55,161 nt of DNA from Victivallaceae bacterium (GTDB taxonomy: Bacteria; Verrucomicrobiota; Lentisphaeria; Victivallales; Victivallaceae). Each line of letters starts with the position of its first letter. The first letter of the stretch is position 1. Below are positions 8,908 through 22,137 of the stretch, piece after piece. The stretch is from the NCBI GenBank assembly GCA_024405715.1, contig JAKSOG010000001.1, positions 1-55,161 on the forward strand, given 5' to 3'. The notes beneath the pieces were generated by a model. It saw only the letters and a list, made by a program, of their open reading frames with translations, searched no databases and was not told the DNA's origin. Position numbers and translations under genes: made by a program.

Positions 8908-9636
8908 TCAAAAGGAAACGTTGACGTCGCCTTGAAGCCGGTAGGGTTCCGCCATCAGGCAGATCCCGGCGGGTTCCGACCAGTCGCGATCCCAGTCCAG
9001 CAACATCAGCGGATCGGTCGGCGGTCCCCAGACGTTGAAGTCGATGAGCAGAATTTCCCATCCCGACGTGAAGTAAATATCCGCCACGATATTGCCGGCG
9101 GGAAGACGGTCGGAAATCATCTCGGCGAAATCCGCCGCCATTTGCCAATAGCGGTCGCGATACCCCTCGAGCCGCCGGAAATGGCGCACGAGATGATACT
9201 GGCTCATCGCGGAAAGTTTCCCGTCGCGGATGAAAAGGCGGAATTCCCGGGGCCAGGACATCCGGCGGAAGGGTCTGATGCAAATGTTTTTCATCGCTCC
9301 GGCGGCGGCGGCGGCGCGGACTTTCGCACTGGACGCAAGATTGAAAAAAGTGCTTTTTGCGGAATAGGTCGCGCCGCGTTTTCCGGCGTAACGTTCGGTA
9401 TCGGTAGGCGCACAGCCGTCGATCGAGGCGAAGCAGTTTCCGGGCACGCCGGCAAGAACTTTTTTCAGCTCGGAAATCATCGCGTCGGCGAGCGGACTCG
9501 CCGCGACGGCTTCGGCATCTCCGGAAGCGATGAGCCGCGCGAGTTCTTCCGGAACAGGGACAAAACGGGTCGGAAAGGCGTATTCGGAAAGCGCCTCATA
9601 CCATACAGGCATACGGCAGAATTCGTCAATCGTCAT
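8908..9636 (-). CDS. Cdc123/D123-like ATP-grasp family protein (242 aa)
   Basis: The start was moved to MTIDEF (9636). CFASIDGCAPTD, REFRLFIRDGKLSAMSQY and IVADIYFTSGWEILLIDFNVWGPPTDPLMLLDWD align by eye with the eukaryotic Cdc123/D123 blocks (FVKLNWSSPKDA, EFRCFV..L.GISQR, FV.DVY....v.LIDfNPf...TD.LLF.W). It overlaps the upstream membrane-protein gene by 11 nt. Confidence 0.6.
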   Translation of the reverse strand: MTIDEFCRMPVWYEALSEYAFPTRFVPVPEELARLIASGDAEAVAASPLADAMISELKKVLAGVPGNCFASIDGCAPTDTERYAGKRGATYSAKSTFFNLASSAKVRAAAAAGAMKNICIRPFRRMSWPREFRLFIRDGKLSAMSQYHLVRHFRRLEGYRDRYWQMAADFAEMISDRLPAGNIVADIYFTSGWEILLIDFNVWGPPTDPLMLLDWDRDWSEPAGICLMAEPYRLQGDVNVSF

Positions 9637-10555
9637 AAAAACCTCCTTGCGGCGCGGAATCGTTTCCGCTCCATTGGTGTTTGTAACGCGCAAGCACCGT
9701 CATCCAGTAAACCAGCAACGCGAAAAAATAAACCTGCGCGTAATTGAAAAACGGCAGTTCCAACAACGGGAAACATCCTCCGATGAGCATCCCGGGAAAT
9801 CCGGCGTAAATACCGCTTTTCCAAAACGTCAGATACCGCTTGAAAAACGACGGAGAATCGCCCCCCCGGTTTCCCGTCGCGACAAACAAGGAGAAAAATC
9901 CGGTCGAAAAAAGCGCGACGGTCAACGCGACCAATCCTTCAAAGACGAAAAGCGCCGTCCAATAGGCGCTCAAAAGGATCTTTTCGAGCGAGGGAACCGT
10001 CATCTCAACGCGTTCCCCGACCGCGCCGGAAACATCGCGGGGCTCCGGCTCCAGGATGAGAAACTGCAACGCGGATTCCGCGTCCGGAGCGGAAAAAACG
10101 TTCTCGGTCTCTCCGGCGCGGATGATCGCCCAGGAACGGTCGTCTCTCCGGTAGCCGACGGCGAATGATCCGCCGCGCCAGAGTACCAGATAATCGACGC
10201 CGCCGAGATCGCCGATCGCCCGGACGGCGTCGGGATGGTTCCCGGCATAACAGAGTCGGCCCTTGCGCGGCAAAACGATCGACCGCGCCTTTTCTTCATC
10301 GCGTCCCGGAAAAACGCCGCGACCGTCGAAAACGACGCGTTCGCCGAATGCGCCGATGAAAGCCCGGCGCAAACCGGAAAAATCCCGGTACAATTTGACG
10401 CCGTGCCATGTGGCGACGGCAAAAGCGATCAGCAACGAGAGCAACAGCAAATGCCAAAATACTTTGCCGAAGTGATTGCGGACGAAAACCGGAAAACCCG
10501 CAGTCCCGCGGCAAACGGAAAAAAGCGTCGCGAAAAAACCGGGACTTGGATTCAT
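9626..10555 (-). CDS. Hypothetical polytopic membrane protein (309 aa)
   Basis: The start was moved to MNPSPGFFATLF (10555), which overlaps the def stop (ATGA). There is an N-terminal TM (VFWHLLLLSLLIAFAVATW), a soluble domain of about 130 aa, and 3-4 C-terminal TM segments. The first 87 codons of the track ORF overlap def and are Arg-rich noise. Confidence 0.55.
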   Translation of the reverse strand: MNPSPGFFATLFSVCRGTAGFPVFVRNHFGKVFWHLLLLSLLIAFAVATWHGVKLYRDFSGLRRAFIGAFGERVVFDGRGVFPGRDEEKARSIVLPRKGRLCYAGNHPDAVRAIGDLGGVDYLVLWRGGSFAVGYRRDDRSWAIIRAGETENVFSAPDAESALQFLILEPEPRDVSGAVGERVEMTVPSLEKILLSAYWTALFVFEGLVALTVALFSTGFFSLFVATGNRGGDSPSFFKRYLTFWKSGIYAGFPGMLIGGCFPLLELPFFNYAQVYFFALLVYWMTVLARYKHQWSGNDSAPQGGFYDD

Positions 10556-11139
10556 TTTTTCGGCTCCCGCAGAAAATTCCGCCGCCGGCCCTTTTCCCGC
10601 AATTCGGCGAGGGGCCGTGCGATGCGCTCCGCTTCCGCGGAGTCCAGACGGTCGGTGAAAACGATCCCGTGCAAATGGTCGATCTCGTGCTGCAGACAAC
10701 GCGCGAGCAGATGATCGCATTCGATCTCGATTTCCTGATTCGCCAGCGTAGTGAAATGCACGACGACCCGTTGCGGACGAACGACTTGCGCGTAAATTCC
10801 GGGGACAGAAAGACACCCTTCCTCGCGGGATGCCATCCCGCCCGCCGAGGAAACGATCCGCGGATTGACCAGCGCCAACGGCATCTGATGAAGCAACAAT
10901 TCCTCTCCGGGAGAAAGCACGGTGTCCTTTTCCGCGGGGACGTCGATCACCACCAGTTGCCGGGAAATTCCGATCTGCGGAGCGGCAAGCCCGATCCCGT
11001 CGTAGCGGTACATCACTTCGACCATGTCGCGGGCGAGCGCGACCACGTCGGGCGTGATCGCAAGGATCGGTTCCGCTTCACGTCCGAGTACCGGATCTCC
11101 GCTGGTATGAACGGGATGTCTGATTTTGCCGCCGAACAT
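10552..11139 (-). CDS. def: Peptide deformylase
   Basis: All three PDF motifs are present: GIGLAAPQIG, EGCLSVPG and QHEIDHLHG. Confidence 0.93.
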   Translation of the reverse strand: MFGGKIRHPVHTSGDPVLGREAEPILAITPDVVALARDMVEVMYRYDGIGLAAPQIGISRQLVVIDVPAEKDTVLSPGEELLLHQMPLALVNPRIVSSAGGMASREEGCLSVPGIYAQVVRPQRVVVHFTTLANQEIEIECDHLLARCLQHEIDHLHGIVFTDRLDSAEAERIARPLAELREKGRRRNFLREPKK

Positions 11140-11148
11140 ATTTTCACC

Positions 11149-11180
11149 AAAAAAAAGCCGTCGGATTTTTTTCCAACGGC
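11149..11180 (-). terminator. Rho-independent terminator after the TolC-like gene, ending 10 nt before the def ATG
   Basis: The reverse-strand RNA reads GCCGUUGGA-AAAAAA-UCCGACGGC followed by U8. The stem is 9 bp (6 GC pairs, one G.U). Confidence 0.65.
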
Positions 11181-11196
11181 GAAAAGTCCGTAGCGT

Positions 11197-12978
11197 TTAG
11201 GGAAGCGCCGTAGCGGAAGCGGGGATCACCGGAATTTCGGATTTCTTTTTTTCCGCTTCCGGAGCTGCGGGAGCCGCTGTTTCCTGCGTTACCGCGGGAA
11301 CCGCGCCGGTCGTTTCGGACGCCTGCGGCTGAGTAACCTCTTCCGCGGGGACCTTCATTTCCTGCGCTGCCACCGGAGCCGCGTCGGTCGTTTCGGGCGT
11401 CTGCGGCTGAGGCGCCGCTTCTGCTGGAGCCGGCGCAGCGGCAGGCACGGAAACATCCGCATCGGGCGGATTTTCCGTCACCGGCTTCGTTTCGGGATTG
11501 TCGGCCTCCGGAGCTTCGGCGGAGGGCTGATTTTCATAGAAATCGGCATTGTTGACGCCGACGGCGGAATCAAGCGCGGCGCGCGCATTCTGAATGTTGA
11601 TGTAGCTCGACGCGAGATTCGCTTCGGCGTCGACGAAGTCGCGCTGCGCCTCGTTGAGTCGGGTCAATTCGGTATTGCCGGCACGGTATTCGTCATCCAC
11701 GAGGTCGCGCTGTTTCGCGGAAAGATCGCGCACTTTCTGGACCATTTTCGTCTGCCGGACGCTCTGCATATACGCGGCGTACGCGGTACGCACGTCGTTG
11801 ACCACCTGAAACCACTGCGCGGCGGTGCGATAGTTGGCGACCGCCAGATTCGCCTCGTACTCGCGCACTTTGTTGTAGCGGCGGAATCCGCTGAAAATCA
11901 CCCAGTCGGCGTTGAGCCCGTAGGCGATGTTGCTGTTTTCCGAAAAAGAACGGCTCGAACCGGGACCGAATTGATTGTTGTCGTCGTTTCTGTACGAACC
12001 GTCGGCGCTATAACCCCAGCTGAAATATGCGCTCGCGGTCGGCGAGAAACTGCCGTACTGCTGATAGAGTTGATATTTGGCGATTTCCAACTGTTCGCGA
12101 TACCCTTTCAGGTCGGGACGGTTGGCGAGCGCCGCGTCGAGATAGACCTCGACCGCGGGCAGATCGACGAAGTTCGTTTTGATGTGTCCGGAAAACGTCA
12201 CTTCCTTGGGGAACGTGCCGTCCGGATAACCCATCAGCAGCGCCAGCGCATAAAGCGAACTTTCATACTGGTAATCCGCCTTGATGAGCGCGACTTCGGC
12301 GTTGTCCATAAGGATCTCGAAGTTCAGCACGTCGCTCAACGGGACCGCGCCGGCTTCGAACTTGTATTTCGTATCGCGCAACGACGTCATCTGGAAGTTG
12401 CGGTCTTCTTCGGCGATGCGGCGGTTTTCGATCGCCAGCAAAACGCTGTTGTAGGCCTGCGCGACCGCCAACATCATCGTCCGGCAGGCGTCGGCGTCCA
12501 AGTGCGCATAATATTTTTCGGAACTGCTGGCTTCCATCACCTGAAATTCACGGATGAGACCGTCGAAGAGCAAAAGCTGCGCGGAAACCGAGAAATTCCC
12601 GTTCAAACTGTCCGAACGGGGATGGGAAACTTTTGAATATTGACGGCCGTTGCCGCTGACCACCCAGGAGTTGCCGCCGCCGAGCCCCGCGCTCGCCGTG
12701 ATCTGCGGCATATAACCGGCGAAACTCTGCAAATAGCGCATATGCGCCGCCGCCACCGAATGGTGCGCCGCGATATAGGTCGGGTTGTTGTGAAGCGCGA
12801 TGCGCTGGGCGTCCGCCAGCGACAGACTGTGCAATTCGTTGAAAAGTTCGTCCGCCGCGTCGCGCTCGCGCTGCGTATAACTTTCGCCGAGCGTCGCCAC
12901 GGGGGGCGCCGGGTAATCGTAACAGCCGCCGAGCATCGCCGCGACCGCCAAAAACGGCAGGATTTTGTCTCTGAACAT
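11197..12978 (-). CDS. TolC/OprM-family outer-membrane efflux lipoprotein with a Pro/Ala/Glu-rich C-terminal tail
   Basis: 593 aa. Lipobox LGGC at residues 16-19. Two TolC-like repeats with long helical stretches (e.g. SLSLADAQRIALHNNPTY...). The last ~110 aa are low-complexity with an internal 26-aa repeat. Confidence 0.75.
   Translation of the reverse strand: MFRDKILPFLAVAAMLGGCYDYPAPPVATLGESYTQRERDAADELFNELHSLSLADAQRIALHNNPTYIAAHHSVAAAHMRYLQSFAGYMPQITASAGLGGGNSWVVSGNGRQYSKVSHPRSDSLNGNFSVSAQLLLFDGLIREFQVMEASSSEKYYAHLDADACRTMMLAVAQAYNSVLLAIENRRIAEEDRNFQMTSLRDTKYKFEAGAVPLSDVLNFEILMDNAEVALIKADYQYESSLYALALLMGYPDGTFPKEVTFSGHIKTNFVDLPAVEVYLDAALANRPDLKGYREQLEIAKYQLYQQYGSFSPTASAYFSWGYSADGSYRNDDNNQFGPGSSRSFSENSNIAYGLNADWVIFSGFRRYNKVREYEANLAVANYRTAAQWFQVVNDVRTAYAAYMQSVRQTKMVQKVRDLSAKQRDLVDDEYRAGNTELTRLNEAQRDFVDAEANLASSYINIQNARAALDSAVGVNNADFYENQPSAEAPEADNPETKPVTENPPDADVSVPAAAPAPAEAAPQPQTPETTDAAPVAAQEMKVPAEEVTQPQASETTGAVPAVTQETAAPAAPEAEKKKSEIPVIPASATALP
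11301..11411. repeat. Two copies of a 33-nt unit, 78 nt apart, within the TolC-like C-terminal tail
   Basis: 11301-11333 is ccgcgccggtcgtttcggacgcctgcggctgag and 11379-11411 is ccgcgtcggtcgtttcgggcgtctgcggctgag (30/33 identical). The 78-nt offset corresponds to 26 codons (QPQTPETTDAAPVAAQE / QPQASETTGAVPAVTQE). Confidence 0.8.
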
Positions 12979-16026: not shown

Positions 16027-16041
16027 CCGGCGGAACGTTTT

Positions 16042-17295
16042 TCACGCCAGCACGAAGCGCGTACCGTCGCGTTCCAATTCGGTGATCGCCCAGACGAGCG
16101 CGTCCATGCGGTCGGGCGACGCGGCGCTCGTCGCGGGGGAAAATCCGGTCATCTGATCTTCGAGTTCGGGAAATATCCCGACGTGATGGACCCGGTTTTT
16201 TTCGTAAAGGGCGGCGACCGGTTCGGCGCGGACGATCTTGCCGCGGCTGGCGCTGACGGCGCGGAAACTCAAATCGGGGTCGATTTGCCGGAGCATCGCT
16301 TCGATGAGATCGCCGCCGTTGTTGACTTCGCCGACGATGCGGTCGGCTCCGAGTTCACGGTAGAGTTCGGCGACGCGGTGTCCCCAATCCAGCGGAGCCA
16401 GACGCCCGCTCGCATCGCGGAGGACGTAATATTCCCCCCGGTCGTCGACGGCGGCGGCGACGATCCCCGTCGAATCGCTTCCGGATGTGCAAGTGACCGC
16501 GGGATCCACGCCGATGACGATGCGCACGAGATCTTCGGGCGGGCGCAGGACCCGCGCCGCGTCGATTTCCGCGATGCTCCAGAGCGCACCGGGAGTTTCG
16601 TCGAGAAAACGCCCTTCGAGAAACCGCTCGCGCTGCCGGGCGGGGAGATTGGCGAGCGTGAATTTGATGTAATCTTCGGGCAGATTTTCGGCGTTGTCGG
16701 CGGGATTGATCCGGAATGCGACGTAAAGCCGCGGATCCGCGAGCGCAGTCCGGTCGACGGGATCGACCTTTTCGATGAACAACCGGTAAGTCCAATGGGT
16801 CTTCCCCGGCGGATTGCAGTCAAAGAGCGCCTTGTTGCGCAGCGGCGGCGCATTCTGCGCCAGCCGGGTCAGCGCGGTCTGGACGCTGGAATAATCCAGT
16901 TCGCTGCACTCGTTGAAGTAGAGCGTCGAAAATTCCTTGCCGAGAATCTTTTCGGCGCGCCGGTCGTCGTCAAGCCCGATCAGCCAGATCTCCGCTCCAT
17001 TGGGCAACCGGAAAAAACATTCGCTCCGGTTGAAATCGGCCTTCACCCCGGGGAAACGGCATTCGAGCGCCTTGGGAAGCGTATCCATCCCGACGGAAGT
17101 CTTGACGCTGTTGAAGTGACGGCGGATGACGGCGTGACGGCTTCCCGGAGCCCGCAACGCGCGCACGAGCAAAGCACAGCAGAGCAGAAAGGTCTTTCCG
17201 CTGCGGCTGCCGCCGAAAAGCATAACGCGGCAGGCGTTTCCGGAAAGAATTTTCAACGCCGCGCGTTGCGCCGGAGTGTAACGGAACTCTTTCAA
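16042..17295 (-). CDS. Phage terminase large subunit
   Basis: Walker A is FGGSRSGKTF and the Walker B-like motif is LYFNECSE. The RNaseH-like nuclease acidic motifs are IGVDPA, GEVNNGGD and DRMDALVWA. The preferred start is the TTG at 17295 (TTGA overlap with the upstream stop). The track ATG at 17475 would add 60 Pro/Arg-rich residues overlapping the upstream gene. Confidence 0.8.
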   Translation of the reverse strand: MKEFRYTPAQRAALKILSGNACRVMLFGGSRSGKTFLLCCALLVRALRAPGSRHAVIRRHFNSVKTSVGMDTLPKALECRFPGVKADFNRSECFFRLPNGAEIWLIGLDDDRRAEKILGKEFSTLYFNECSELDYSSVQTALTRLAQNAPPLRNKALFDCNPPGKTHWTYRLFIEKVDPVDRTALADPRLYVAFRINPADNAENLPEDYIKFTLANLPARQRERFLEGRFLDETPGALWSIAEIDAARVLRPPEDLVRIVIGVDPAVTCTSGSDSTGIVAAAVDDRGEYYVLRDASGRLAPLDWGHRVAELYRELGADRIVGEVNNGGDLIEAMLRQIDPDLSFRAVSASRGKIVRAEPVAALYEKNRVHHVGIFPELEDQMTGFSPATSAASPDRMDALVWAITELERDGTRFVLA

Positions 17296-17837
17296 GAGAG
17301 CGTTTCCCGCCGTGCCGTATTGCGGGAAAAAGCGCTCCGGCTCCGGCGGACTTTCCGGAACGTCAATTCCAGAAGATGCGCGATCTCGGGATTTTTCCGC
17401 GCCGAACGCAACATCTTGCGGTGGATCGCCTGACGGGTGCAGCGGTGTACCCGCGCCAGTTCGGCGACGGAGCAACGCTCCGCCGTATCGGGCCGCGGCA
17501 CGATGATTTCGGAAAGGATCCCGAGCGTATAATCGTCGAGTTCGAGCATAAAGCGCAGAAATCGCGCCATTCCGGGGATCTCGGGCGCGGCTTTGCCGTC
17601 CTGCGCGGGATTCTCCGGAACCGGTTCGGCGCCGGGCACATGGACGGTATCGGCGATGAGGTCGCTCCAGTTCTGCACGAATTCAAAGCTGACCATATTG
17701 AGGCGGCTTTCCATTTTCGGAGCGCTTTCGGTGTAATAACGGCACGAACGGCCGAATTCGCATTGGGCGCATGCGGCGCGGTCTTCCGGGTATTTCCCGT
17801 AACACGCCGGCGCGTCGGAAACGTATTCGCTTTTCAT
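17292..17837 (-). CDS. Phage-module protein with an N-terminal Cys4 cluster and a C-terminal helix-turn-helix (181 aa); possible pac-recognition or regulatory protein
   Basis: The start is at MKSEYVS (17837). The cysteine cluster is ACYGKYPEDRAACAQCEFGRSC. The C-terminal CSVAELARVHRCTRQAIHRKM resembles a sigma-region-4/HTH segment. The gene sits directly upstream of, and is coupled to, terL. Confidence 0.45.
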   Translation of the reverse strand: MKSEYVSDAPACYGKYPEDRAACAQCEFGRSCRYYTESAPKMESRLNMVSFEFVQNWSDLIADTVHVPGAEPVPENPAQDGKAAPEIPGMARFLRFMLELDDYTLGILSEIIVPRPDTAERCSVAELARVHRCTRQAIHRKMLRSARKNPEIAHLLELTFRKVRRSRSAFSRNTARRETLS

Positions 17838-17841
17838 AATC

Positions 17842-18225
17842 TTATCCGCGTTTGATCTGCAATGCTCCGGAAAGAGTCGCCCCCGCAAGAAGCGCCCGTG
17901 CGCGGCTTCCCAGCGTCGAGGAAGAAACGTTTTCCGCGACCTTGTAGGTGCAACTGCCGACGCCGTCGATGCTTTCCGAGACGATCCGCCGGTCGGGAAC
18001 GCCGCTCAACGCGTCGCGGTGAAGCAAAAGGTGGATCGTCTGTTCGGCGAGCGCCGCCCGCAGCAACGCGTCGTCTTCGTCGGTGACGGGACGGCCGAGT
18101 TCCGCGGCGACGTCGAGATCGGCGGCGTTGAGCGCCGCCTGTTTTTCCGCCGTGGAAAAGCCGTTCAGTTCTTCACAGAGCAAATGCGTATTGAAATACG
18201 CCTGTAAAACCGTTTCGGAAATCAT
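17842..18225 (-). CDS. Small phage structural protein, putative head-tail adaptor/connector (127 aa)
   Basis: The call rests on position immediately after the major capsid gene, the size, and a helical acidic N-terminal half, all typical of gp6-like connectors. No strong motif was recognised. Confidence 0.4.
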   Translation of the reverse strand: MISETVLQAYFNTHLLCEELNGFSTAEKQAALNAADLDVAAELGRPVTDEDDALLRAALAEQTIHLLLHRDALSGVPDRRIVSESIDGVGSCTYKVAENVSSSTLGSRARALLAGATLSGALQIKRG

Positions 18226-18288
18226 ATCGCAAAACTCCGGAAAGACCGGGAAAGGTCAACCCCTTCCCGGTCGCGTGAAAACAAACGA

Positions 18289-19473
18289 TCAGTCGCCGGA
18301 AACCGTGCCGCCGGAAACACTTTCGGACGATACGCGCATTTCCGCGATCGCGGCGGCGGCGCCTTTCACGTTGGCGATGCGGCAGACGCGCTGTTTCACG
18401 TTTTTGAATTCAAACGTCAACTCGCCGAGCGCCGTGCGGCGCACGCCGTCGAAACCGCGCGGCGTCGCGTCGCCGTCGGAAATTGCGCGTCCTTTGAGAT
18501 TGGCCATCGCGAAACCGCTGGGATCGACGACCCAGACGTCGGTGTCGGGCACGTCGGGATCCGCCATCACGGTCAATCCGCGGCCGTTGATCTCGTTGAC
18601 GATGACGGCGACGTAAGCACTGCGGCGGTCGTCGGAACGCAGGATCTGCAACCGGTCCTTGTATTCGTTGGAGATCACGCGCGCCTGACCGGGACTGCAG
18701 AGCACCTGGACGGGATCGCCTCCTTCGGCGAGCACCATCTGGGCGGCGTCGTTGATAAGATAACTGTCGATGCGTTTTTCCTGCGCGTCAACGGTCAGCG
18801 CACCGGACCCCGTGGCGAAATAGTAAAGTCCGCCGGCTTCGCCGCGCACCGACGCCGTCGCTTCGACGCGGCGTCCGAAAAGCGCCACCCGGTTGAGATC
18901 GCGGGCGAGATCGCTCAACGCGAAAGCGGTCTGGCGGTTGAGTTGATTGTCGACGGAACCGTAGACCCCGACGGCGAGCGCCGAACCGGAAAGCACGATT
19001 TCCTTGCGGAAGATCTGGGTCGTGTTGTATTCGGTGCCGCAAACGGCGTAGTTTTCCTCGCCGTCGCCGTTGACGCTCGCTTCGGACATCGGCGTCGAAA
19101 CGATGATGAAATTCCCGGAAGTGAGCGTCGCGGCGGTCAGCGACGATCCGTTGGCGGCGCCGAGCGAAACGACCGCAGTCGTGCCGGAAACGCTCTCGAC
19201 CTTGAAGAGCGCGGGATCGTCCTTTTTCGCGATCAGCGTGCCGACCCGCAACTTGGCGGCGTCGGCACTTCCGAGGGTAAGCGTCCCGCCGGAAACGGCG
19301 GTCGTTCCGAAACCGCGGCCCGTCAGCTGATCTTCGAGCCATTCGTGTTTGCGGCTGGTCGCGTCCGCGGCGCGGCGGAAATTGGAAATGAAGCGGGGTT
19401 CGTCTTTGACGACCTGCGACAGCACATCCGAAAGATCGCGCTTTTTGTTGGAGAAACTGTAACTGTACAACAT
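18289..19473 (-). CDS. Phage major capsid protein (HK97-fold, SU10/DUF5309-like)
   Basis: 394 aa. The N-terminus DLSDVLSQVVKDEPRFISNF...RKHEWLEDQL and the position after the scaffold gene are characteristic of this capsid family. Confidence 0.75.
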   Translation of the reverse strand: MLYSYSFSNKKRDLSDVLSQVVKDEPRFISNFRRAADATSRKHEWLEDQLTGRGFGTTAVSGGTLTLGSADAAKLRVGTLIAKKDDPALFKVESVSGTTAVVSLGAANGSSLTAATLTSGNFIIVSTPMSEASVNGDGEENYAVCGTEYNTTQIFRKEIVLSGSALAVGVYGSVDNQLNRQTAFALSDLARDLNRVALFGRRVEATASVRGEAGGLYYFATGSGALTVDAQEKRIDSYLINDAAQMVLAEGGDPVQVLCSPGQARVISNEYKDRLQILRSDDRRSAYVAVIVNEINGRGLTVMADPDVPDTDVWVVDPSGFAMANLKGRAISDGDATPRGFDGVRRTALGELTFEFKNVKQRVCRIANVKGAAAAIAEMRVSSESVSGGTVSGD

Positions 19474-19501
19474 TTTTCGGGAGTCCTTTCTCTGTTAAAC
19501 G

Positions 19502-20035
19502 TTACTCCTTGAACGGCACTTTGCCGATCGTTTGCATCAACGCGCCGATGCGGGAAACCGGATCGGGAAACGCGCATTCTCCGTCGTCGCGCTCGAGCGT
19601 TTCGGCGCAACCGGAACCGCCGCCGCTTTGCAAGCGGGAAAAAAATGCGGACGGATGACTTTTCGTCAGGTCTCCGATCATCGCCGCCACGGCGGCTTCG
19701 TCGTCGAGATCGACCGCCCTTTTTCCGGCGAGAAAATCGAGATAATCGGCATCGGCGCAACCGGCGTCGCGGGCGATCCGATCGATTTTGTTGCGGCGTT
19801 CGAGCGCGCGGTATTTCTTTTCGATCTCTTCGCGTTCGGCGAGCGCGCCGTCGAGCGCTTTTTGCATTTTTTCGGTTTCGCTGAGCTGGGCGTTTTCGGC
19901 GGCGTCGAGTTTCCGGCGCAGTTCGGCAATTTCCCGGGACATCGCGTCGGGATCGCGTTGCAGCCACGCCTGCCGTTCGTTTTCGTCCAGCGGCGATTCG
20001 GCGATGAATTTTTTCCAAAGGGCGGACACGTTCAT
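19502..20035 (-). CDS. Phage scaffolding protein (177 aa)
   Basis: This is the in-frame C-terminal part of the spurious 663-aa track ORF. It is charged and coiled-coil (EIAELRRKLDAAENAQLSETEKMQKALDGALAEREEIEKKYRALERRNK). The ATG at 20035 overlaps the portal stop (ATGA), and the SD is aaggagag. Confidence 0.65.
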   Translation of the reverse strand: MNVSALWKKFIAESPLDENERQAWLQRDPDAMSREIAELRRKLDAAENAQLSETEKMQKALDGALAEREEIEKKYRALERRNKIDRIARDAGCADADYLDFLAGKRAVDLDDEAAVAAMIGDLTKSHPSAFFSRLQSGGGSGCAETLERDDGECAFPDPVSRIGALMQTIGKVPFKE

Positions 20036-21444
20036 TTTTTCTCTCCTTGATTTTCGCCCGGGGAGGCGAGTTCTTCTTTTTCTCCGGACGGCATCGCGGC
20101 GACGCCGCCGAGCAGTTCGACCGCGGCATTCCGGACCGCCCGGCGGTAGGCGGCGTCGCCGGAAAGTTGCGACAGTTGAAGCAGTCCGGAAATCGTTTTC
20201 TGCAGATCGCGTACCGCGAATTCGCGGTTGTAGGCGATCTCCGGTACCGGAATGCCGCGGTCGAAACGGTGGATCATTTTCCATGCGGAAATTTCCGCCT
20301 CTTCCAGTTGCGCGGCGCGTTCGGCGAGAAACCAGTCGACGTGCCGGAAATCCCATTCCTTGGATTCCGCTGTACGGTTTTCGCGCCCGCGCCCCTGGAC
20401 CGCCAGTCCCACCACGTCGTAGAGTTCCTGTTTGAGTTGCAGATTTTCCTGACGGATCACCTCGCTCGCCACACCGGAAGGACCGATGTAACGGCTGATC
20501 CCCTTTTCTTCGACCGATTCGATGATCGCCGCGCTCCGGGCGACGGTCGCGGCGAAACCGGCGGCGGAATTGCCCGCCGCAAGTTTCCGGGCGCCGCGGG
20601 CGAAGGAATCCGACACGACGAGCATTCCGAACATCTGTTTGACGATATTCATCTGGGATTCGGATTCGTTGTTGAGGATCGCTTCGCTGATACGCACCAC
20701 GTCTTCGAACCAGTGGTTGGCGTCCATCCCGAAACCGTCGATTTCCTCGACGGAAACAAGCGGGACTTCGCCGATCGGATTGACGCCGCCGCCGACCTCG
20801 CGGCAGCCGGACGCCGTCCGCTCGAAAACGCGCCACCGGTCGCGCTCGAGCAACCGCATCCGCTCCCGGCGCACTTCGGAAGAAAAAGGATCGCTGTGAT
20901 CGACCGCTTCCTCGGAAATCAGCGCCCAGAGCAATTTCCCGTCGGCGCCATATGCCCAGTCGGTCACGTCGAGCGCCGAAAGCGTCCGCACATAAGGCCG
21001 CAACCGCTCCTCGGCGGCGCGGCGCAACGAAACTTCGCCCTCGAAACGGGGCGATTCGACCAGAAGATACGCCTTCCCGTAAACGCTGAGCATCGTCGAC
21101 AACTGCCGCATCACCCCCGTCGCGCGCAACCCCGAACGGCTCCAATCCTCGACCAGTTCCGCGTCGGCGTTGCGCCGCACCGGTTCCGTGCCGAGCACGC
21201 TCTGGGTGATCTGGCGCGCGATCGAACGAGGATAATTGAAGTAATAGGCGCGCCGGCGTCTTTCGGAAAATTCGAGTTCGATCTCGGAAACGTGACGGAT
21301 CAGCGCCGCTTCCAGATAGCCGCTGCCGCCGGAATAGGCGTCGCGGCTCTTTTTCCATACATCGCGCCGACGCGCGTAATCCGGGTGCATACGCGTGAAA
21401 AGCACGTCGGGATCGCGGGAAAGATGATCTTCGCTTTTTTTCAT
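20032..21444 (-). CDS. Phage portal protein
   Basis: About 470 aa. The N-terminus (RRRDVWKKSRDAYSGGSGYLE...RRRRAYYFNYPRSIARQIT) resembles podovirus-type (DUF4055-like) portals. The ATG at 21444 shares one base with the terS stop (TGATG), and the SD is aaggag. Confidence 0.75.
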   Translation of the reverse strand: MKKSEDHLSRDPDVLFTRMHPDYARRRDVWKKSRDAYSGGSGYLEAALIRHVSEIELEFSERRRRAYYFNYPRSIARQITQSVLGTEPVRRNADAELVEDWSRSGLRATGVMRQLSTMLSVYGKAYLLVESPRFEGEVSLRRAAEERLRPYVRTLSALDVTDWAYGADGKLLWALISEEAVDHSDPFSSEVRRERMRLLERDRWRVFERTASGCREVGGGVNPIGEVPLVSVEEIDGFGMDANHWFEDVVRISEAILNNESESQMNIVKQMFGMLVVSDSFARGARKLAAGNSAAGFAATVARSAAIIESVEEKGISRYIGPSGVASEVIRQENLQLKQELYDVVGLAVQGRGRENRTAESKEWDFRHVDWFLAERAAQLEEAEISAWKMIHRFDRGIPVPEIAYNREFAVRDLQKTISGLLQLSQLSGDAAYRRAVRNAAVELLGGVAAMPSGEKEELASPGENQGEKK

Positions 21445-21842
21445 CACAACTCCTTTTCTTCGGCGGAAAACGTGATCTTGACCGGTTCTTCAAGCACGAC
21501 GTTCCTGCGGTCGCGCCATGCGTCGGGGCGGCGGTTTTTCAACCAGAAAACCGCCGCTTTGACATCCGCCGGGACGTGGCGTACCGCGTCGTCGCAGCCG
21601 ACGTCGTATCCGGTCGCCCGGCGGAAAAGCGCCGCTTCGACCTGATCGTCCGCCAGTTCGGCGGCGCATTTCCGGCATTCCGCCAGCAGCGTTTCGAATT
21701 CCGGATATTTTTTGCGGTAGCGGCGCAAGGTTTCCGCCGACAGATTCAACCTTGCGGGCAGATCGCGCTCGGCGCCCCCCGCGCATAAAAAGGCGCGGAT
21801 CGACTCCCAGGCGGGTTTGACGATCATTTCATATCGGTCCAT
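21444..21842 (-). CDS. Phage terminase small subunit (132 aa)
   Basis: The start was moved to the ATG at 21842, preceded by GGAGGA. An HTH-like segment (LNLSAETLRRYRKKYPEF) is followed by VEAALFRRATGY...AAVFWLKNRRPDAWRDR, typical of small terminases. Confidence 0.7.
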   Translation of the reverse strand: MDRYEMIVKPAWESIRAFLCAGGAERDLPARLNLSAETLRRYRKKYPEFETLLAECRKCAAELADDQVEAALFRRATGYDVGCDDAVRHVPADVKAAVFWLKNRRPDAWRDRRNVVLEEPVKITFSAEEKEL

Positions 21843-21964
21843 AAATCCTCCGAAAGATCCGGCTTTCCGGAATCTTTTTTCATCCAACAGAATCTTTGTC
21901 AACCGTTTTTCCGCCCCGCCGGAAAATTTTTCTCTTTTTTCGCCGGAACGGGTCGCACGTCATT

Positions 21965-21993
21965 AATATAAGACTTAATTTTCGATATGTCAT
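21965..21993 (-). promoter_or_regulatory. Sigma70-type promoter for the phage-derived module (ATGACA-17-TATATT)
   Basis: The reverse strand reads gATGACAtatcgaaaattaagtctTATATT in an AT-rich stretch. It lies about 120 nt upstream of the terS ATG. Confidence 0.5.
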
Positions 21994-22090
21994 CGGCGAA
22001 TAAACATTCGCTATGTGCCTGACGGAAAGGGATTTACAACTTTTCTGAAATGTGTTTTTTTCTTCCCGGCATCCGGTGCCGCGCCCCGTC

Positions 22091-22137
22091 TTTTCCGCCG
22101 CGGAAAAATTCCGGAGTGCGGATTTTCCGCGGAAAAA
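22091..22137. promoter_or_regulatory. Two related palindromes (TTTTCCGC-c-GCGGAAAA and TTTTCCGCGGAAAA) about 30 bp apart, abutting the aroF -35; candidate operator sites
   Basis: 22091-22107 and 22123-22136 are (near-)perfect inverted repeats. The second ends 2 nt before the -35 at 22139. Confidence 0.35.

Follow-up and report, generated by a model that had tools for sequence, protein, structure and literature searches.

Gene transfer agents (GTAs), among them RcGTA, BaGTA, VSH-1, Dd1, VTA, and FpGTA, are sets of phage structural genes that are fixed in a host chromosome, are inherited vertically across a family under purifying selection, have no functions of their own for replication or integration, and are of a size that precludes meaningful self-packaging. 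To our knowledge, GTA-like systems outside the Alphaproteobacteria are very few, and in the literature searched none was reported from the Planctomycetes-Verrucomicrobia-Chlamydiae (PVC) superphylum. The same literature held nothing relevant on a GTA or a head-only element in Lentisphaerota or on prophages in Victivallaceae. The other close system is the capsid-forming phage-inducible chromosomal island (cf-PICI), such as EcCIEDL933 or KpCIDSM30104, a mobile island of 10 to 18 kb with its own capsid, portal, adaptor, and small and large terminase genes, an integrase/recombinase (or GIY-YIG), a replication module, a protease, a connector, and an HNH endonuclease, but no tail and no lysis genes. 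The formation of tail-less, DNA-filled capsids that later acquire tails is an established mechanism, cf-PICI capsids taking tails from various phages (10.1101/2025.02.11.637232). Here we describe a module of seven phage-derived head and DNA packaging genes in a 55,161-nucleotide stretch of DNA from a Victivallaceae bacterium (contig JAKSOG010000001.1; the whole 55-kb stretch is called the window, or W in lists of loci). We favor, with a probability of about 0.5, the reading that the module is a chromosomally fixed, selected capsid-assembly and DNA-packaging operon that yields DNA-filled, tail-less heads and resembles both a GTA and a cf-PICI. The evidence for it comes from gene content and intactness, purifying selection, a single origin, codivergence with the chromosome, and conserved regulatory DNA.

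Results

A head-only module among housekeeping genes

The module comprises seven uninterrupted, codirectional genes on the minus strand at 16042-21842, in the order terS, portal, scaffold, major capsid protein (MCP), p127, p198, and terL; p127 and p198 are the two module proteins encoded between MCP and TerL. The features of the module are as follows.

21444..21842, minus strand: terS, small terminase subunit, 132 aa (phrog_309, 1.8e-22)
20032..21444, minus strand: portal protein, 470 aa, ATG at 21444 (phrog_145, 7.7e-50)
19502..20035, minus strand: scaffolding protein, 177 aa (PF06810, 1.1e-5; phrog_194, 2.5e-5)
18289..19473, minus strand: MCP of the SU10/DUF5309 type, 394 aa (PF17236 SU10_MCP, 3.6e-47)
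18244..18272, minus strand: GC-rich stem-loop followed by TTTCC, between the MCP and p127 genes, sequence GACCGGGAAGGGGTTGACCTTTCCCGGTC
17842..18225, minus strand: p127, 127 aa, head-tail adaptor candidate (Ad1/gp6-gp15-like; position, weak PHROG matches)
17292..17837, minus strand: p198, 181 aa, Cys-rich N terminus and C-terminal helix-turn-helix (HTH), ATG at 17837
16042..17295, minus strand: terL, large terminase subunit, 417 aa, TTG start at 17295 (Terminase_6N, Terminase_3, Terminase_6C; phrog_979, 3.4e-69)

An earlier note on the window, made from the sequence alone, had described seven intact, codirectional minus-strand genes, and the open reading frames and profile searches bore this out. 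The coupled junctions read exactly as given there: the terS stop and portal start share TGATG at 21444, the portal stop and scaffold start share ATGA at 20032-20035, and the p198 stop and terL start share TTGA at 17292-17295. Shine-Dalgarno (SD)-like sequences were found ahead of five genes (terS, portal, scaffold, MCP, and p127), in agreement with the SD claimed for most of them. The gene starts were revised slightly (portal ATG 21444, p198 ATG 17837, and TerL TTG 17295), the resulting 417-aa TerL product agreeing with the database gene call. The terS start was moved from TTG 21902 to ATG 21842, which is most likely the true start; it has GGAGG as its SD and aligns with the start in the related locus L001. 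The MCP passed the PF17236 gathering score with 161.7 bits against a cutoff of 24.1. The TerL Walker A (GGSRSGK), Walker B-like (YFNECSE), and nuclease (VDPA, EVNNGG, and SPDR(M)DA) motifs, which had been described as retained, were invariant or nearly so across 37 relatives. The stem-loop downstream of the MCP gene may act as an attenuator and so set the ratio of capsid to minor proteins.

The module lies directly among housekeeping genes. Pfam searches confirmed ThiI, an OEP/TolC-type protein, and deformylase on one side and DAHP synthase, prephenate dehydrogenase, DHQ synthase, and EPSP synthase on the other. The ThiI gene, on the same side as the CoaD gene, is convergent with terL and lies 15 nt from the terL stop. 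No tRNA adjoins the module, and a repeat search found no att-like direct repeats flanking it. Pfam, PHROG, and phage-homology searches found no integrase, replication, tail, or lysis gene at the locus, and no other phage-like gene was found in the window; homology to related complete-phage loci was confined to 16027-21959. In base composition the module is indistinguishable from host genes: GC content at third codon positions (GC3) is 0.70 to 0.78 in the module and 0.63 to 0.78 in host genes, and codon usage correlates at 0.95 between module and host versus 0.98 between two halves of the host genes. On all of these points (tRNA, repeats, missing phage functions, and composition like that of the flanks) the earlier note had judged correctly.

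Distribution, purifying selection, and vertical descent

The MCP has hundreds of close relatives that are 67 to 83% identical, and all named ones come from Lentisphaerae/Lentisphaeria metagenome-assembled genomes. A scan of one genome per GTDB species returned 103 MCP relatives, 80 of which were fetched; these 80 loci are nearly all labeled Victivallaceae, Victivallales, or Lentisphaeria, with MCP identities of 60 to 85%. The loci were sorted by searching their six-frame translations with hidden Markov models (HMMs) built from the loci themselves. The same seven genes in the same order were present in 37 of the 80 (class A). Another 37 held scaffold-MCP-p127 only (class B), some of them on short contigs in which gene absence cannot be judged; four had portal beside or near scaffold-MCP-p127 (class Bp), and two were complete prophages (L013 and L025). 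Further metagenome contigs also carry the seven-gene module. In four of them, judged by database gene calls and Pfam labels, it sits directly between housekeeping genes, with phosphoglucomutase, nusA-infB-rbfA, feoAB, mutL, ETF/acyl-CoA dehydrogenase, lpxC/fabZ, MoxR/VWA, and type II secretion genes as neighbors. No tail, lysis, integrase, or replication genes were found within 10 kb of the module in the 37 class A loci or these four contigs.

Outside these genomes the family is sparse. Even in the nearest deposited phages, MCPs (those of Bacillus, Brevibacillus, and Vibrio phages) are no more than 28% identical and TerLs (those of Synechococcus phages) no more than 48%. A representative library of 1.84 billion proteins contains the MCP family as about two clusters, whose full-length representatives are 67% and 60% identical to the window MCP; the next full-length representatives are 37 to 51% identical.

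The nearest relatives of the window locus (L001, L002, and L057) carry the head-only module next to aroF-tyrA-aroB-aroA, with coaD, ribF, def, and tolC on the terL side; the thiI-tolC block of the window is inverted and transposed relative to them. The earlier note had suggested looking in relatives for a complete prophage at this site with a series of decaying forms. Because these three loci are head-only at the aroF site, such a series is absent.

Identical subclades were recovered in the MCP, portal, and TerL trees, which argues that the module evolves as a unit. The species of one subclade carry the module at a shared chromosomal site; the neighborhood changes from subclade to subclade, with local inversions. 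In four loci (L022, L026, L023, and L031) the whole module, from repressor to terL, appears to be inverted in place relative to the neighboring gene blocks of sister species. Among 45 locus pairs sharing at least three flanking gene families, MCP identity correlated with mean flank identity (r = 0.68, p = 2.5e-7), and MCP was mostly more conserved than the neighboring genes. Between the window and L001, for example, identity is 69% for the flanks, 83% for MCP, 75% for portal, and 77% for TerL. Portal identity among class A loci is 54 to 75%.

The ratio of nonsynonymous to synonymous substitution rates (dN/dS; Nei-Gojobori method, ten head-only pairs with dS of 0.2 to 1.5) was 0.03 to 0.43 for each of the seven genes, the same range as for a pair of intact prophages and far from the value near 1 that the earlier note had proposed as a check; dS is high for the window's own pairs, so their ratios are approximate. 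The fastest-evolving genes were those for the adaptor (p127), the scaffold, and p198. One interrupted module gene was found in about 40 loci, the MCP gene of L057 (L057:9977-11055), which is split into two reading-frame segments by a frameshift or an assembly error; the other short matches are contig ends or lineage-specific N termini.

These data bear on the explanation that the module is a neutral, well-preserved prophage remnant without current function, one of the interpretations listed in the earlier note. The module is phage derived and incomplete, as such a remnant would be, and the MCP gene of L057 is split. Nevertheless, this explanation is scarcely credible and effectively excluded, because dN/dS is 0.03 to 0.43 for all genes in pairs with dS of 0.2 to 1.5, all seven genes are kept in 37 species, the TerL catalytic motifs are invariant, and a single gene is interrupted; promoter and operator DNA is conserved as well. 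The relaxed selection, pseudogenes, and sporadic distribution of cryptic prophages were not seen. The proposal in the same note that the module was retained and ameliorated, rather than being a random stump, is upheld by its presence in 37 species of one clade, by the dN/dS values, and by codivergence with the flanks.

Phage ancestry of the module

Three complete phages have the same head-gene order: L013, L025, and the 44.8-kb IMG/VR contig behind L086. Upstream of the head genes they carry DnaB/primase, ParB-like, and methylase genes; between p127 and p198 they carry a gene for MuF/"minor capsid protein 2"; and terL is followed by genes for a small protein (f44), an HK97-gp10-like neck protein, f79 (whose gene belongs to the neck/tail block of the phage), what is probably the major tail protein, chaperones, and other tail components. 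The order in the phage lineage is terS-portal-scaffold-MCP-adaptor-(MuF)-p198-terL-neck-tail. Since the complete phages share the distal terL, this order is ancestral and not a rearrangement of the window locus; the earlier note was right that it is unusual but not that terL had been displaced here. The module, which is 55 to 70% identical to complete phages infecting the same bacterial family, corresponds to the phage minus its replication, integration, entry, and exit genes: the MuF-type injected protein and the head closure, neck, tail, lysis, replication, and integration functions are absent, and no head-only module has a MuF-like gene.

In trees of concatenated portal and MCP sequences rooted on class Bp (100 bootstraps), class A was monophyletic to the exclusion of the phages in 99 of 100 replicates, with the phages as its sister group. 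The MCP by itself gave 97 of 100. The trees argue that class A descends from a single ancestral reduction of a temperate siphophage lineage of Victivallaceae.

Could the module nonetheless be a still-mobile, minimalist satellite that is excised, replicated, and moved by helper-phage functions in trans? Head-only content is common to cf-PICIs, neighborhoods differ by subclade, the module is inverted in place in L022, L026, and L023, and two genomes also hold a related complete prophage. We consider this highly unlikely, since there is no integrase, replication gene, or flanking repeat, the site is the same across species within a subclade with divergence matching that of flanking genes, class A is monophyletic, and composition is fully host-like.

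Several observations concern the phages themselves. The MuF-like protein of L025 (L025:11897-13495) has a C-terminal extension resembling an ADP-ribosyltransferase toxin domain (R...STS...E-x-E), and its counterpart in L013 has a different C terminus. Two metagenomic phages (L091:131-10723 and L092:3-11641) share portal, scaffold, p127, MuF, f44, f79, and f80; their terL precedes portal, the canonical position, and their MCP was not recognized by the family HMM, a pattern that suggests that capsid genes are exchanged as modules among these phages. A scan of IMG/VR for the MCP returned four contigs, one of which was a class A module misflagged as viral. A lone, intact MCP, 67% identical, is encoded on a 52-kb IMG/VR phage contig (L085:9936-11141) and nests within class A in a neighbor-joining (NJ) tree. 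Its neighbors are RecD/Dda-like helicase, ERCC4 nuclease, DNA polymerase exonuclease, PAPS-reductase-like, and radical SAM genes, and no portal or terminase gene of the module family adjoins it.

The upstream control region

Three features lie ahead of terS in the window.

21965..21993, minus strand: P1, sigma-70-like promoter ATGACA-17-TATATT (promoter scan, 10/12 matches)
21997..22010, minus strand: palindrome CGAATGTTTATTCG just upstream of the -35 hexamer, subclade-specific candidate operator
21896..21904, minus strand: GGTTGACAA box, which resembles a second -35 element and lies 55 nt ahead of the terS ATG, invariant in the subclade

The promoter scan thus recovered the ATGACA-17-TATATT promoter that the earlier note had placed upstream of the module. 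The -10 hexamer of P1 and the bases around it do not vary among the four members of the subclade (W, L001, L002, and L057), and P1 is positionally equivalent to a TTGAAA-17-TATATT promoter in repressor-controlled relatives. The palindrome at the edge of the -35 hexamer is kept as (A)GCGAATnTTTATTCG in the same four loci (also written CGAATnTTTATTCG and CGAATnnTTATTCG) and stands where other class A loci have TTGCA-N4-TGCAA operators.

In 27 GTDB class A loci a divergent gene encodes a protein of ~300 aa with an XRE-type HTH and a Peptidase_S24 domain (phrog_4 "transcriptional repressor," 1.3e-23), and its Ser/Lys dyad is retained in 19 of 26. In these relatives the TTGAAA-17-TATATT promoter faces terS and contains a TTGCA-N4-TGCAA palindrome within its spacer; one or two extra copies flank this in-promoter copy. 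Across the 27 species the region between repressor and terS holds three such palindromes, a T-rich hairpin, and a small open reading frame with the motif DP-I---G--YS--GL (e.g., L014:1247-1619, L018:7333-7777, and L011:7378-7764), and a GTTGACAAT box immediately precedes terS. In 0.75 Mb of loci, TTGCA-N4-TGCAA occurred almost nowhere outside these regions. In L003 and L081 the operators are present without an adjacent repressor. Judged by its architecture, the module appears to be a switchable operon that is probably SOS responsive in most members, and the window subclade appears to have replaced the repressor/operator control.

Some repressor homologues depart from this pattern. Those of L022, L026, L027, L028, L029, and L033 lack the G-x-S-M-x-P serine motif, and those of L027 to L029 and L033 are also shortened to about 190 to 210 aa; repressors without the serine motif may no longer be cleavable by RecA*. 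A second class of palindrome was considered as a module regulator and rejected. TTTTCCG(N0-6)CGGAAAA sites occur upstream of terS (22120-22134, 22091-22107, and 21906-21925) and inside the module (18143-18159 and 21454-21470), but no relative has such palindromes in the equivalent region, and in the window they also turn up away from the module; it contains 16 TTCCG-N-CGGAA sites.

A repressor and operators of this kind also figure in a different explanation, anti-phage interference, in which the capsid, portal, and terminase would sabotage related siphophages by mixed assembly, terminase cutting, or PICI-like capsid theft. The 55 to 70% identity between the module and complete phages of the same host family makes cross-assembly plausible, the CI-like repressor and its operators could confer immunity, and the lone L085 MCP among DNA metabolism genes could be a countermeasure. 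It is not obvious, however, why interference would need all TerL catalytic motifs and seven genes under purifying selection; the locus contains no toxin or abortive effector, and none of the seven proteins matched a PADLOC defense model (the relatives' repressor matched RmrA, at 0.005 only). Taken together, interference appears quite unlikely.

Loci reduced to scaffold, MCP, and p127

Class B comprises L034, L036, L038-L044, L046-L048, L050-L056, L058-L061, L063-L068, L070-L072, L074, L075, L077, L079, and L080. The MCP gene lies at about 10001-11150 in each locus and its product is 60 to 68% identical to the window MCP. The genes sit among housekeeping genes, with dN/dS of 0.05 to 0.28, and no portal or terminase gene was found within 10 kb of the trio. 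The cultured strain zth2 (L047, CP071032) belongs to this class. In zth2, laminarin induces a stand-alone "terminase large subunit" (JYG24_06675), located away from the P2-like prophage, 16-fold (PMC11361711). The zth2/WC36 study also describes hexagonal particles released without lysis (PMC11361711); any link to the module capsid/TerL family is conjectural.

A GTTGACA box, represented by GGTTGACAA in the window, precedes the first module gene, be it terS in the phages, scaffold in class B, or portal in class Bp, and is present in class A as well. In a class B subclade it is followed by the leader (T)AAnGCGTGGTCACTCACGTAAAAAAG, within which lies the hairpin CGTG-GTCACT-CACG (L047:9263-9335, L052:6267-6340, L056:9270-9340, L058, L060, L061, L066, L067, L074, and L075). 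This AAnGCGTGGTCACTCACGTAAAAAAG leader could be an operator or an RNA element.

At the other end of the trio, the gene after p127 can encode a tube-like/Ig-like protein (phrog_2175, 3.6e-7; major tail phrog_885, 0.006). In L056 and L060 the protein encoded after p127 is fused to a domain homologous to phage f79, and in L061, L068, and L075 f79-like genes lie a few kilobases away. Genes of these kinds are found at L056:11628-12518, L036:11600-12073, L052:8841-9284, L050:11644-12075, and L061:5958-6575. In L062, portal and an f44 neck-like gene (782-2493) are 8 kb from scaffold-MCP-p127 (9362-11554), on the opposite strand and with housekeeping genes in between; the same genome also harbors a complete related prophage (L013).

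Dispersal of this kind raises the alternative of a split GTA, in which the head module would be one of several coregulated loci, with neck, tail, and lysis genes elsewhere in the genome, as in RcGTA, and the host would make whole particles. The dispersed class B genes, the arrangement in L062, the tube-like or f79-like genes after the adaptor gene or a few kilobases off in several class B loci, and the GTTGACA box ahead of each separate unit are all in keeping with it. The stand-alone terminase gene induced in zth2 would be so too if it is homologous to the module TerL. Class A, on the other hand, is compact rather than dispersed, and searches of the window and of the 10 kb around class A modules gave no homologue of tail, neck, or lysis genes. 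A metagenome scan with a narrow f79 alignment returned four loci, all of them in complete-phage contexts. A split GTA is unlikely on this evidence. The earlier note had listed it beside a fixed relative of the capsid-forming satellites, and the tail gene searches, in which genes of the parental type turned up inside complete phages alone, do not tell these two apart.

The p127 and p198 proteins

Members of the p127 family were found in at least 51 loci, class B and complete phages included, always immediately 3' of the MCP gene. They match phrog_541 and phrog_477 "head-tail adaptor" weakly. The AlphaFold2 model of p127 is helical with a beta-hairpin, with a predicted local distance difference test (pLDDT) score of 66; a Foldseek search with it gave no significant fold match, the top two (nonsignificant) hits being phage neck proteins. 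No Pfam family was matched in a search with every p127 member, and comparison of the p127 and p198 family profiles with PDB sequences gave nothing meaningful. A word-indexed homologue search for p127 yielded five proteins, so that the alignment is shallow. Gene position, the weak PHROG matches, and the moderate model suggest that p127 is probably a head-tail adaptor; the "adaptor-like" label of the earlier note agrees with position and PHROG, and the fold search added no significant match to it.

The p198 gene always lies directly upstream of terL, in complete phages too. Residues C10, C24, and C30 and an SRQ-HRK helix are invariant or nearly so in 20 relatives, and Pfam returned weak generic HTH matches only. 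A single-sequence AlphaFold2 model (pLDDT 45) was too poor for use. We regard p198 as a candidate DNA recognition or packaging accessory protein.

Discussion

From the genes and regulatory DNA described above, we infer that particles are produced, what DNA they package, and where their tails come from. In the favored reading, that of a selected operon for DNA-filled, tail-less heads, the upstream promoter would fire and scaffold and MCP would assemble on the portal. In most relatives the promoter would be freed when the divergent CI-like S24 repressor is lost from the in-promoter operators; in the window subclade a different palindrome would take the operator's place. TerS, perhaps with p198, and TerL would then cut DNA and pump it in, and the adaptor-like p127 would cap the portal, leaving a DNA-filled, tail-less head. 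The module, at 5.8 kb, is roughly 8 times smaller than the ~45-kb genome of a parental-type phage and has no excision or replication genes, which argues that the cargo would be mostly chromosomal. That DNA might be packaged at random, as in a GTA, or, in the manner of lateral transduction, from a pac site within or close to the module and outward. For release and delivery the heads would depend on lysis, head closure, neck, and tail functions supplied in trans, most likely by related phages (tail piracy).

Several findings weigh against this reading. The f44 head-closure candidate and the gp10-like neck gene, which follow terL in the phages, are missing from the module, so that filled heads might leak, and the module has no lysis gene. 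A related complete prophage was present in two sampled genomes only (L013 with L062 and L025 with L019), which implies that most carriers lack a resident helper. The assignment of p127 as an adaptor is weak. The window subclade has neither the S24 repressor nor the TTGCA-N4-TGCAA operators. As for the single origin, the portal tree placed the phages outside class A in just 51 of 100 replicates, and the NJ terL tree placed them inside it.

More tentatively, and with the odds against it, the family may represent an undescribed domesticated machine: a head-only packaging capsid of single siphophage origin, vertically inherited, controlled by a CI/S24 SOS-type switch, packaging the chromosome in situ and using pirated tails or none, with a second lineage pared down to scaffold, capsid, and adaptor. 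Such elements would stand between GTAs and cf-PICIs and offer a snapshot of their birth.

A family abundant in rumen and hindgut keeps, under strong selection, the phage genes for heads and packaging but not those for tails. Should the capsids be made and filled, they would constitute a new route of chromosomal DNA mobilization in gut communities, and the module would be a natural intermediate linking prophages, satellites, and GTAs. The complete phage, the module of seven genes, and the reduced form with three make up a rare series in which to compare what hosts keep of a virus and why. Cultured Lentisphaerota with the three-gene form (zth2 and possibly WC36) are at hand, and the conserved repressor and operators offer a handle for induction.

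How, then, does the module compare with known systems? Its MCP belongs to the same Pfam family (DUF5309, PF17236) as the capsids of SU10-type phages, which are distant, at no more than 28% MCP identity for the nearest deposited phages. Lateral transduction by Staphylococcus aureus 80alpha and by P22 involves in situ packaging, without prophage excision, from a chromosomal pac site and headfuls of host DNA, both of which would be expected of the module; it is a by-product of a complete phage life cycle, whereas the module has head and packaging genes only.

With GTAs the module shares a fixed, vertically inherited, and selected cluster of phage structural genes, the lack of its own replication and integration functions, and a size too small for meaningful self-packaging. 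Even where their genes are split, known GTAs have those for heads and tails, and usually also for lysis, whereas no tail gene was found within 10 kb of the modules or in the window. In most class A members a phage-type CI/S24 repressor would gate the operon directly, whereas known GTAs use host global regulators.

With cf-PICIs the module shares the set of capsid, portal, adaptor-like, and both terminase genes and the absence of lysis genes and of a complete tail, and DNA-filled, tail-less heads that need foreign tails would be expected of both. The adaptor is much more divergent between cf-PICIs than the rest of their packaging module, and p127 is likewise among the most divergent module proteins. 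In size and in its lack of a recombinase and a replication module, the module departs from cf-PICIs: it measures 5.8 kb, or about 7 kb with the repressor of its relatives. It has a scaffold in place of the protease, and Pfam and PHROG searches found no connector and no HNH gene. It further differs in having no att repeats, in being vertically inherited, and in the S24 CI-like repressor of most relatives. The module departs from what defines either system; in its working it comes closest to the packaging module of a cf-PICI, with the population genetics of a GTA.

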